Shown here: positions 1,191-1,332 of the stretch, one piece after another | How the letters are laid out: every line of letters starts with the position of its first letter | How positions within the stretch are numbered: the first letter of the stretch is position 1 | Assembly (NCBI RefSeq): GCF_988243305.1 | Contig: NZ_OZ547141.1 | DNA from: a plasmid | Strand: one strand, 5' to 3' | Length of the DNA: 3,731 nucleotides | Position numbers and translations under genes: made by a program | Notes under the pieces: model-generated | Database searches by the model: none | What the model saw: only the letters and a program-made list of their open reading frames with translations | Told to the model about the DNA's origin: nothing

Positions 1191-1304
1191 TGTACCTTAA
1201 ATCGAATATCGGACAACTCATGTCTATTATTACAAATTTACGATTTAATAGACATATTAATGTAACAGTTTTACGATGTCCGATAATTTATAACATCGTG
1301 GATG
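1191..1304. other. res recombination site of the Tn3 family: site III 1191-1215, site II 1221-1254, site I 1277-1304
   Basis: Half-sites TGTACCTTA/TATCGGACA (site III, 25 bp), TGTCTATTA/TAATAGACA (site II, 34 bp) and TGTCCGATA (site I left half) are visible. The spacings III-5bp-II-22bp-I reproduce the canonical Tn3/gamma-delta res architecture. The right half of site I (1291-1304) does not show the expected half-site pattern. Confidence 0.8.
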
Positions 1305-1332
1305 TGTCAGCTTGTTTTTATGATATGAGAAC

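Follow-up and report, generated by a model that had tools for sequence, protein, structure and literature searches.

The 3,731-nucleotide stretch of DNA analysed here (the window) is very probably, at roughly 90%, a deletion derivative of a larger plasmid, and sequence comparison shows that a single recombination between two direct copies of the octamer TATAACAT accounts for it. On this account the parent was a ColE1-type plasmid of 9-12 kb with a Se72-type retron, into which a complete Tn2 had inserted 16 bp beyond a cer-like site with duplication of AATTA. One copy of TATAACAT is the core of Tn2 res site I; the other, 40 bp before the RNAII promoter, overlaps the codon at which the retron effector gene stops. 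Intramolecular recombination between these direct copies produced an origin-bearing circle of 3,731 bp with IR-R, bla, tnpR, res sites III and II and half of site I, the junction at 1289-1296 being the scar. The other product, an origin-less circle, would have been lost, and with it the entire retron, any IS26-mph(A)-IS6100 insert, and tnpA, IR-L and the remaining (right) half of site I.

The window is a rotated copy of the entire circular record NZ_CP138772.1 (3,731 bp; position 1 of the record is position 1344 of the window), which is plasmid unnamed5 of Klebsiella oxytoca strain 45 from a human patient in Jinhua, China. Its two ends join seamlessly inside bla, and the molecule is an ampicillin-resistance plasmid of 3.7 kb (Table 1). 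The replicon has the attributes of the ColE1 type: RNAI (RF00106), an annotated Rop, and an RNAII promoter assigned by position. This promoter, missed at 1333-1361 by a simple consensus promoter scan, was placed from the pMB1/ColE1 arrangement and from its location just upstream of the RNAI 3' end. The resolvase encoded by tnpR (WP_001235713.1) is also found in plasmids pSCU-105-2 and p11_MLI105 and at one further locus (L007). The list of open reading frames stretches tnpR to 197 amino acids (628-1221, minus strand) from a start inside res, the annotated start being 1185; the extension is probably meaningless. No relaxase open reading frame is present in the whole plasmid, where the accessory protein MobA is the sole mobilisation gene; in PLSDB it is nevertheless classed as mobilizable, with a relaxase of the MOBF type, an assignment that looks doubtful. 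The sequence GGTGCGTACAATTAAGGGATTATGGTAAAT at 3122-3151 is cer-like, presumably resembling the XerC/XerD core of ColE1 cer, and the insertion point of Tn2 lies 16 bp further on; a literature search with the cer core sequence returned unrelated primer matches only.

Table 1. Features of the 3,731-bp window, in window coordinates.
Feature	Position	Strand	Basis
blaTEM-1, 5' part (start codon 443-445)	1..445	-	RefSeq annotation of identical record
tnpR, intact, 185-aa Tn2 serine resolvase	628..1185	-	Annotation WP_001235713.1; serine-recombinase family matches
res site III, 25 bp	1191..1215		TGTACCTTAAATCGAATATCGGACA, identical to Tn2, inverted half-sites
res site II, 34 bp	1221..1254		TGTCTATTATTACAAATTTACGATTTAATAGACA, identical to Tn2, 5 bp from site III
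Promoter-like site TAGACA-17-TACGAT, directed across the junction	1249..1277	+	Consensus scan
Hybrid site I: genuine left half and core, then backbone-derived right arm	1277..1304		TGTCCGATAATTTATAACAT followed by CGTGGATG
Crossover interval TATAACAT, 8 bp, common to both parents, with site I scissile AT at 1290-1291	1289..1296		Sequence comparison
Backbone spacer	1297..1332		100% identity to pSCU-105-2, p11_MLI105 and NZ_CP066843.1 downstream of effector CDS
RNAII promoter, ColE1-type (-35 TTGAGA 1333-1338, -10 TAATCT 1356-1361)	1333..1361	+	Inferred from position
RNAI, antisense copy-number regulator	1374..1474	-	Rfam RF00106, 94.6 bits, E = 1.2e-17
rop/rom	2131..2325	-	RefSeq annotation WP_001485273.1; allele as in pSCU-105-2 and p11_MLI105
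mobA, small accessory mobilisation protein, 107 aa	2609..2932	+	NCBIfam NF041264 MobA, 113 bits (cutoff 80); annotation
AATTA, remaining copy of 5-bp target-site duplication of original Tn2 insertion	3164..3168		Comparison with p11_MLI105
IR-R, Tn2 terminal inverted repeat, 38 bp	3169..3206	+	Exact match to GGGGTCTGACGCTCAGTGGAACGAAAACTCACGTTAAG
blaTEM-1, 3' part	3316..3731	-	RefSeq annotation of identical record, WP_000027057.1, coordinates converted

Over 1,859 nt, the transposon-derived part of the window (3169 to 3731 and on from 1 to 1296) matches a complete Tn2-type element with 0 mismatches, and the resemblance to res is therefore not due to chance. An earlier note on this DNA had recognized res sites III and II and the left half of site I in canonical spacing, and this reading holds: the left half of site I (TGTCCGATA) lies at 1277-1285, and the spacing is exact at 25/5/34/22, with a gap of 5 bp between sites III and II and of 22 bp between sites II and I. 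A full res would cover 1191-1304, that is 114 bp, the canonical res being 114 bp long with a 28/34/25 architecture (PMC2602789). A search of both strands of the entire circle that tolerated as many as 8 mismatches found no second Tn3-type 38-bp inverted repeat, and the 3,731 bp contain no open reading frame or annotation for a transposase. Since nothing of the circle lies outside the window, the assembled plasmid lacks both tnpA and IR-L. One further replicon of K. oxytoca strain 45, considered as a source of tnpA in trans, proved to be a phage-like plasmid of no relevance. AATTA is present in a single copy (3164-3168), the pair being seen in p11_MLI105. The remnant thus differs from an autonomous Tn2 in having neither two inverted repeats, nor tnpA, nor a target-site duplication at both ends. 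With one inverted repeat and no transposase, bla appears to be stranded on a one-ended remnant that would not transpose autonomously, as the earlier note had proposed, and is now tied to the replicon instead of a mobile transposon.

Identity to Tn2 ends at 1296 and identity to the plasmid backbone starts at 1289, so that the two overlap by the octamer TATAACAT. Site I of Tn2 is TGTCCGATAATTTATAACATTTCGTACG, composed of TGTCCGATAATTTATAACAT and TTCGTACG, whereas the window has TGTCCGATAATTTATAACAT joined to CGTGGATG; compared over 1291-1304, the window (TAACATCGTGGATG) and the right half of Tn2 site I (TAACATTTCGTACG) diverge from 1297 on. The right arm of site I in the window scores only -0.6 as a resolvase half-site, versus 9.7-16.1 for six genuine half-sites. 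These results bear out the earlier description of the right half as unlike a half-site, and in the alignment to Tn2 and ColE1-type backbones that the earlier note had called for, transposon identity stops at 1296 and does not continue past 1304. The ColE1-type RNAII promoter (1333), which the note had placed close to res, is 37 bp from the junction, and the adjacent RNAI matches its Rfam family at 94.6 bits. The proposal that the breakpoint is the central AT of site I fared less completely: the AT at 1290-1291 falls within 1289-1296 and is found at the aligned position in both parents, but the crossover cannot be placed at the AT because both parents share the 8 bp TATAACAT, an identity that bars mapping finer than 1289-1296. 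The partner copy of TATAACAT in the retron plasmids takes in the TAA that ends the effector gene (window 1291-1293).

Neither IS26 nor IS6100 terminal repeats occur anywhere in the window, which rules out an IS-mediated deletion. Adjacent deletion by transposase as the sole event is also ruled out, the junction having no inverted repeat. The promoter-like site at 1249-1277 is probably the former tnpA promoter, to judge from its position and direction, and may now read toward the RNAII promoter 56 bp downstream. What is left of res, two complete sites (II and III) and one half-site (of site I), is unlikely to serve for normal resolution.

The backbone of the window belongs to a known plasmid lineage. 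Positions 1289-3168 are at least 99.7% identical to ColE1-type retron plasmids of approximately 4.05-4.15 kb such as NZ_CP066843.1, a family that includes about 20 similar records from E. coli, Salmonella, Shigella and E. marmotae. The sole cargo of these plasmids (1-1789 of NZ_CP066843.1) is a Se72-type retron consisting of a 379-aa reverse transcriptase and a 67-aa effector, the latter annotated as "retron Se72 family effector". The window is without this cargo, the loss reaching exactly to the effector stop codon. Two larger plasmids, pSCU-105-2 (NZ_CP051740.1; E. coli, 9,703 bp, USA) and p11_MLI105 (NZ_CP116926.1; E. coli, 11,848 bp, Mali), contain the window as one contiguous sequence with 0 mismatches when it is read circularly with 1289 as its start and 1296 as its end (3,739 nt, the 8-bp overlap being counted twice). 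Both have a junction of backbone and IR-R identical to that of the window and still carry the retron, and in both a block of IS6100-mphR-mrx-mph(A)-IS26 interrupts tnpA after about 85 bp (codon ~28). In p11_MLI105, the retron of which is intact, IR-L is kept, and IR-R and IR-L are each bordered by AATTA at the same backbone position, where the uninterrupted insertion site of NZ_CP066843.1 reads GGTTAAATTA/CTATTGG. The AATTA-flanked repeats of p11_MLI105 therefore indicate that a complete Tn2 entered the retron plasmid once, and that the window is of the same lineage.

The junction of AATTA with IR-R was found in five plasmids: pSCU-105-2, p11_MLI105, and three from India, Tanzania and Bangladesh (CP034256.1, pPRO_A-1401-6M-A_3 and pE600055_10). 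Further rearrangements in all five sister plasmids end at IS26 or IS6100, and the window alone has a junction that does not involve an insertion sequence. In pPRO_A-1401-6M-A_3 and pE600055_10, IS6100 adjoins Tn2 immediately before the bla promoter region, at the equivalent of window position 534, and tnpR and res are wholly gone, a separate, IS-mediated route to a stranded bla. CP034256.1 (28,652 bp) appears to consist of about three noisy tandem copies of a plasmid of ~9.9 kb, with fragmented, low-identity calls of bla, mph(A) and mrx, and is probably a long-read concatemer misassembly.

Another retron plasmid, pUSDA5905_5 (NZ_CP039839.1), is of a slightly different sublineage and has no transposon at AATTA. 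It possesses a Tn3-family element with a duplicated TATAA at the equivalent of window 1289-1293 (AAAGG TATAA/IR-R to IR-L/TATAA CATCG), oriented as the transposon of the window, and its tnpA end matches two other elements of the survey (L006 and L009), not Tn2. On these sequence matches the element is taken to be of the Tn1/Tn3 type and its insertion to be independent. Two other interpretations of pUSDA5905_5, that it had arisen by deletion from the Tn2 insertion seen in the window and that it was a partly assembled retron plasmid with Tn2 at that site, were discarded because the ends show a different, independent insertion at TATAA. The use of TATAA in both plasmids may reflect a property of the local DNA that attracts transposase as well as recombination.

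The junction of the window was found in no other record among 72,556 PLSDB plasmids, so that the search for further plasmids with this junction, which the earlier note had recommended, leaves the record unique in PLSDB. Nor does it occur in 5,426 complete E. coli genomes, in JGI metagenome contigs, or in a gene-call index queried with the 48-aa open reading frame that spans the junction. All 20 of the other Tn3-family copies of site I that were sampled run on into a genuine right arm, res and tnpA. A scan of representative genome contigs gave eight loci, four of which are real Tn3-family res sites that continue normally and four of which are chance 19-mers, by estimate about the number expected by chance; in a scan of metagenomes, all 16 loci continue into res and tnpA. 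This survey shows that junctions at the centre of site I are rare, in a sample too small for a test of enrichment. Some of the sampled elements are mosaic, with a change of identity beside site I, in keeping with the mosaicism at res known for Tn1, Tn2 and Tn3 (PMC4611040). One in Shewanella hafniensis (NZ_BPFD01000124.1, around locus position 4479-4497) shares 99% identity with Tn2 on the side of tnpA and 78.8% on that of tnpR, an apparent res-site mosaic in an environmental genus. The 67-nt flanks of site I are present in 3,477 (left, tnpR side) and 4,595 (right, tnpA side) PLSDB records; because the right flank outnumbers the left, by ~1,100 records, many elements must share the start of Tn2 tnpA and differ in tnpR and the left part of res. 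These counts were discarded as a bound, the tnpA-side flank being common to other mosaic elements.

The most likely catalyst of the deletion, although at chances of only about even, is the element's own TnpR resolvase, which would have cut the AT of site I and the matching AT of its best core look-alike (10 of the 12 central bp), a reaction that would be rare and outside the normal rule of res x res. Direct repeat pairs of at least 8 bp, the recombination of which would retain bla and the replicon, were counted in three models of the precursor: a simple retron plasmid::Tn2 (9,003 bp), pSCU-105-2 and p11_MLI105. The counts are 344, 381 and 637, respectively; repeats of 9 bp or more make up 85-170 of the pairs, and repeats of 10 bp or more 22-52. 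Exactly one pair of the 344-637 spans the centre of site I, and it is the pair that was used, an argument of one in hundreds that is weakened by the window having been chosen for its site I coincidence. Of 5,273-8,118 candidate positions, none resembles the central 12 bp of site I as closely as the partner (10/12, with runners-up at 9/12), a rank that is not independent evidence because it largely follows from the 8-bp identity. The partner core has the central AT and TATA, and for recombinases built from the Tn3 resolvase catalytic domain and zinc fingers, targets are chosen by a central TATA or by at least 8 of the 12 central bp (PMC3084882). The direct orientation of the two copies of TATAACAT on one molecule, the intact tnpR and the absence of an IS element at the junction also count for the resolvase.

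Counted against the resolvase are the half-site scores of the partner, -4.5 and -0.6 versus 9.7-16.1 for genuine half-sites. At the offsets required for accessory sites II and III, the partner has no half-site-like 9-mers above background, and a cryptic res at this location was rejected on the lack of half-site and accessory-site matches above background. The partner is thus not a res, so that one of the two complete sites of a canonical res x res reaction is lacking. Wild-type Tn3 resolvase has been reported to be active only on supercoiled res x res substrates with two complete sites, and res x site I activity in E. coli required selected activating mutants (PMC2602789). The TnpR of the window is the common wild-type protein, which also counts against it, as does the occurrence of the junction in a single record; the 20 of 20 sampled site I copies that continue normally give no hint of recurrence. 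A 2-bp overlap suffices for resolvase, so that the full 8-bp identity exceeds its need and fits the expectation for slippage. Literature searches of incomplete coverage yielded no description of natural plasmids in which wild-type TnpR had joined res to a non-res site. The idea of a resolvase-mediated event, raised in the earlier note, is therefore upheld in part: it is plausible for a deletion at the site I core, but it is confronted with a partner devoid of res features and with 8-bp microhomology as a rival. The more specific claim, that a wild-type resolvase in its natural host recombined a full res with a non-res core look-alike lacking half-sites and accessory sites, is tentative and somewhat doubtful.

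A serious rival, although less likely than the resolvase, is that a structure of the same origin arose by a RecA-independent microhomology deletion (replication slippage, copy-choice or short-homology end joining) between the 8-bp copies of TATAACAT in which resolvase played no role, in which case the coincidence with site I would be due to chance. An exact 8-bp direct repeat in pSCU-105-2 and p11_MLI105, with one copy left in the product, is the classical signature of such a deletion; the partner has none of the features that resolvase recognises, and wild-type resolvase strictly needs two full res (PMC2602789). Tn2 is present in 3,477 PLSDB records, and with selection of striking cases an occasional chance match to site I is to be expected. 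Chance would nevertheless have had to choose, from 344-637 equally good or better pairs, the one at the centre of site I, when 85-170 pairs are longer. The repeats are 5.3-8.1 kb apart in the precursor models, and slippage drops steeply with the distance between repeats. Other rearrangements in the lineage are bounded by IS26 or IS6100, and none by microhomology.

A history of two steps is unlikely. Here the Tn2 at AATTA would have transposed intramolecularly into TATAA (1289-1293), deleting the retron and leaving a full Tn2 with IR-L abutting TATAACATCG, after which copies of TATAACAT ~3.3 kb apart would have recombined to remove tnpA and IR-L, with a catalyst as uncertain as in the one-step deletion. 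TATAA is a proven Tn3-family target in pUSDA5905_5, and adjacent deletion by intramolecular replicative transposition is a known outcome for this family; on the other hand, Tn3 transposition immunity disfavours insertion into a molecule that carries the inverted repeat, and two rare events are invoked where one is enough. No intermediate with IR-L next to TATAACATCG and without the retron was found in PLSDB or the 5,426 complete E. coli genomes, where that junction occurs only in pUSDA5905_5, and the closest relatives of the window (0 mismatches) have a tnpA already destroyed by IS6100. The two-step route leaves the nature of the final crossover unchanged. It is very improbable that the 3,731-bp circle was produced by misassembly of a larger plasmid resembling pSCU-105-2. 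The junction is known from a single record and is found nowhere else, and the apparently noisy concatemer CP034256.1 of the same lineage suggests that small plasmids are sometimes misassembled, but an 8-bp repeat is far below assembler k-mers and read overlaps and cannot collapse an assembly graph, and the window forms a closed circle in which the replicon is complete and bla intact.

By the favoured reading, a single deletion between the two copies of TATAACAT, a widespread retron-bearing ColE1-type lineage, with related plasmids in human E. coli from the USA, Mali, India, Tanzania and Bangladesh, has been reduced to a minimal 3.7-kb blaTEM-1 plasmid in Klebsiella oxytoca. The event is of mechanistic importance only if the resolvase was responsible, and is otherwise a tidy, well-explained single deletion. 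If TnpR did carry it out, the window would show that a serine resolvase under tight regulation had recombined a pseudo-site in nature, which bears on the off-target behaviour of resolvase-derived genome-editing enzymes and on transposon decay. Illegitimate recombination by a serine resolvase would then be a natural route for bla transposons to shed their transposase, and the same route would delete adjacent plasmid cargo, here an anti-phage retron. The use of TATAA as a Tn3-family target would in that case suggest a structural preference for this DNA shared by both enzymes.

Several known systems resemble the window in part. As in the reactions of activated Tn3 resolvase mutants and zinc-finger recombinases (PMC2602789, PMC3084882), the partner is a site I-like core without accessory sites, and partner choice in those reactions by similarity over the central ~12 bp together with TATA or AT has its counterpart in the 10/12 match found here. 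Those reactions, however, require activating mutations or an added DNA-binding domain, whereas the TnpR of the window is an ordinary wild-type protein and its partner has no binding motif. Mosaicism of Tn1, Tn2 and Tn3 associated with res is known (PMC4611040), and hybrids from recombination at res are attributed to Partridge and Hall (2005) as cited there. The hybrids are like the window in that exchange occurred at the res crossover and left the tnpR-bla side intact, but they derive from two genuine res sites and are complete transposable products, whereas the window had a non-res partner and has neither tnpA nor IR-L. The Tn2 remnants truncated by IS26 or IS6100 in the sister plasmids share with the window their lineage, the junction of AATTA with IR-R and a stepwise loss of transposition functions; in them, breakpoints coincide with the ends of insertion sequences (IS6100 at tnpA codon ~28 or window position 534, and IS26 in the retron), unlike the junction of the window, which is without an IS. 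As in slipped mispairing between short direct repeats, an 8-bp repeat flanks the lost segment and one copy is left, although in contrast to the usual cases 5-8 kb separates the repeats, one of which is exactly the scissile core at which a site-specific recombinase acts. The structure adds one more case to a familiar type of transposon decay, in a plasmid lineage that is itself known, and is unusual only in the coincidence of its breakpoint with the site I core and in the use of the same pentamer as an independent Tn3-family insertion target.
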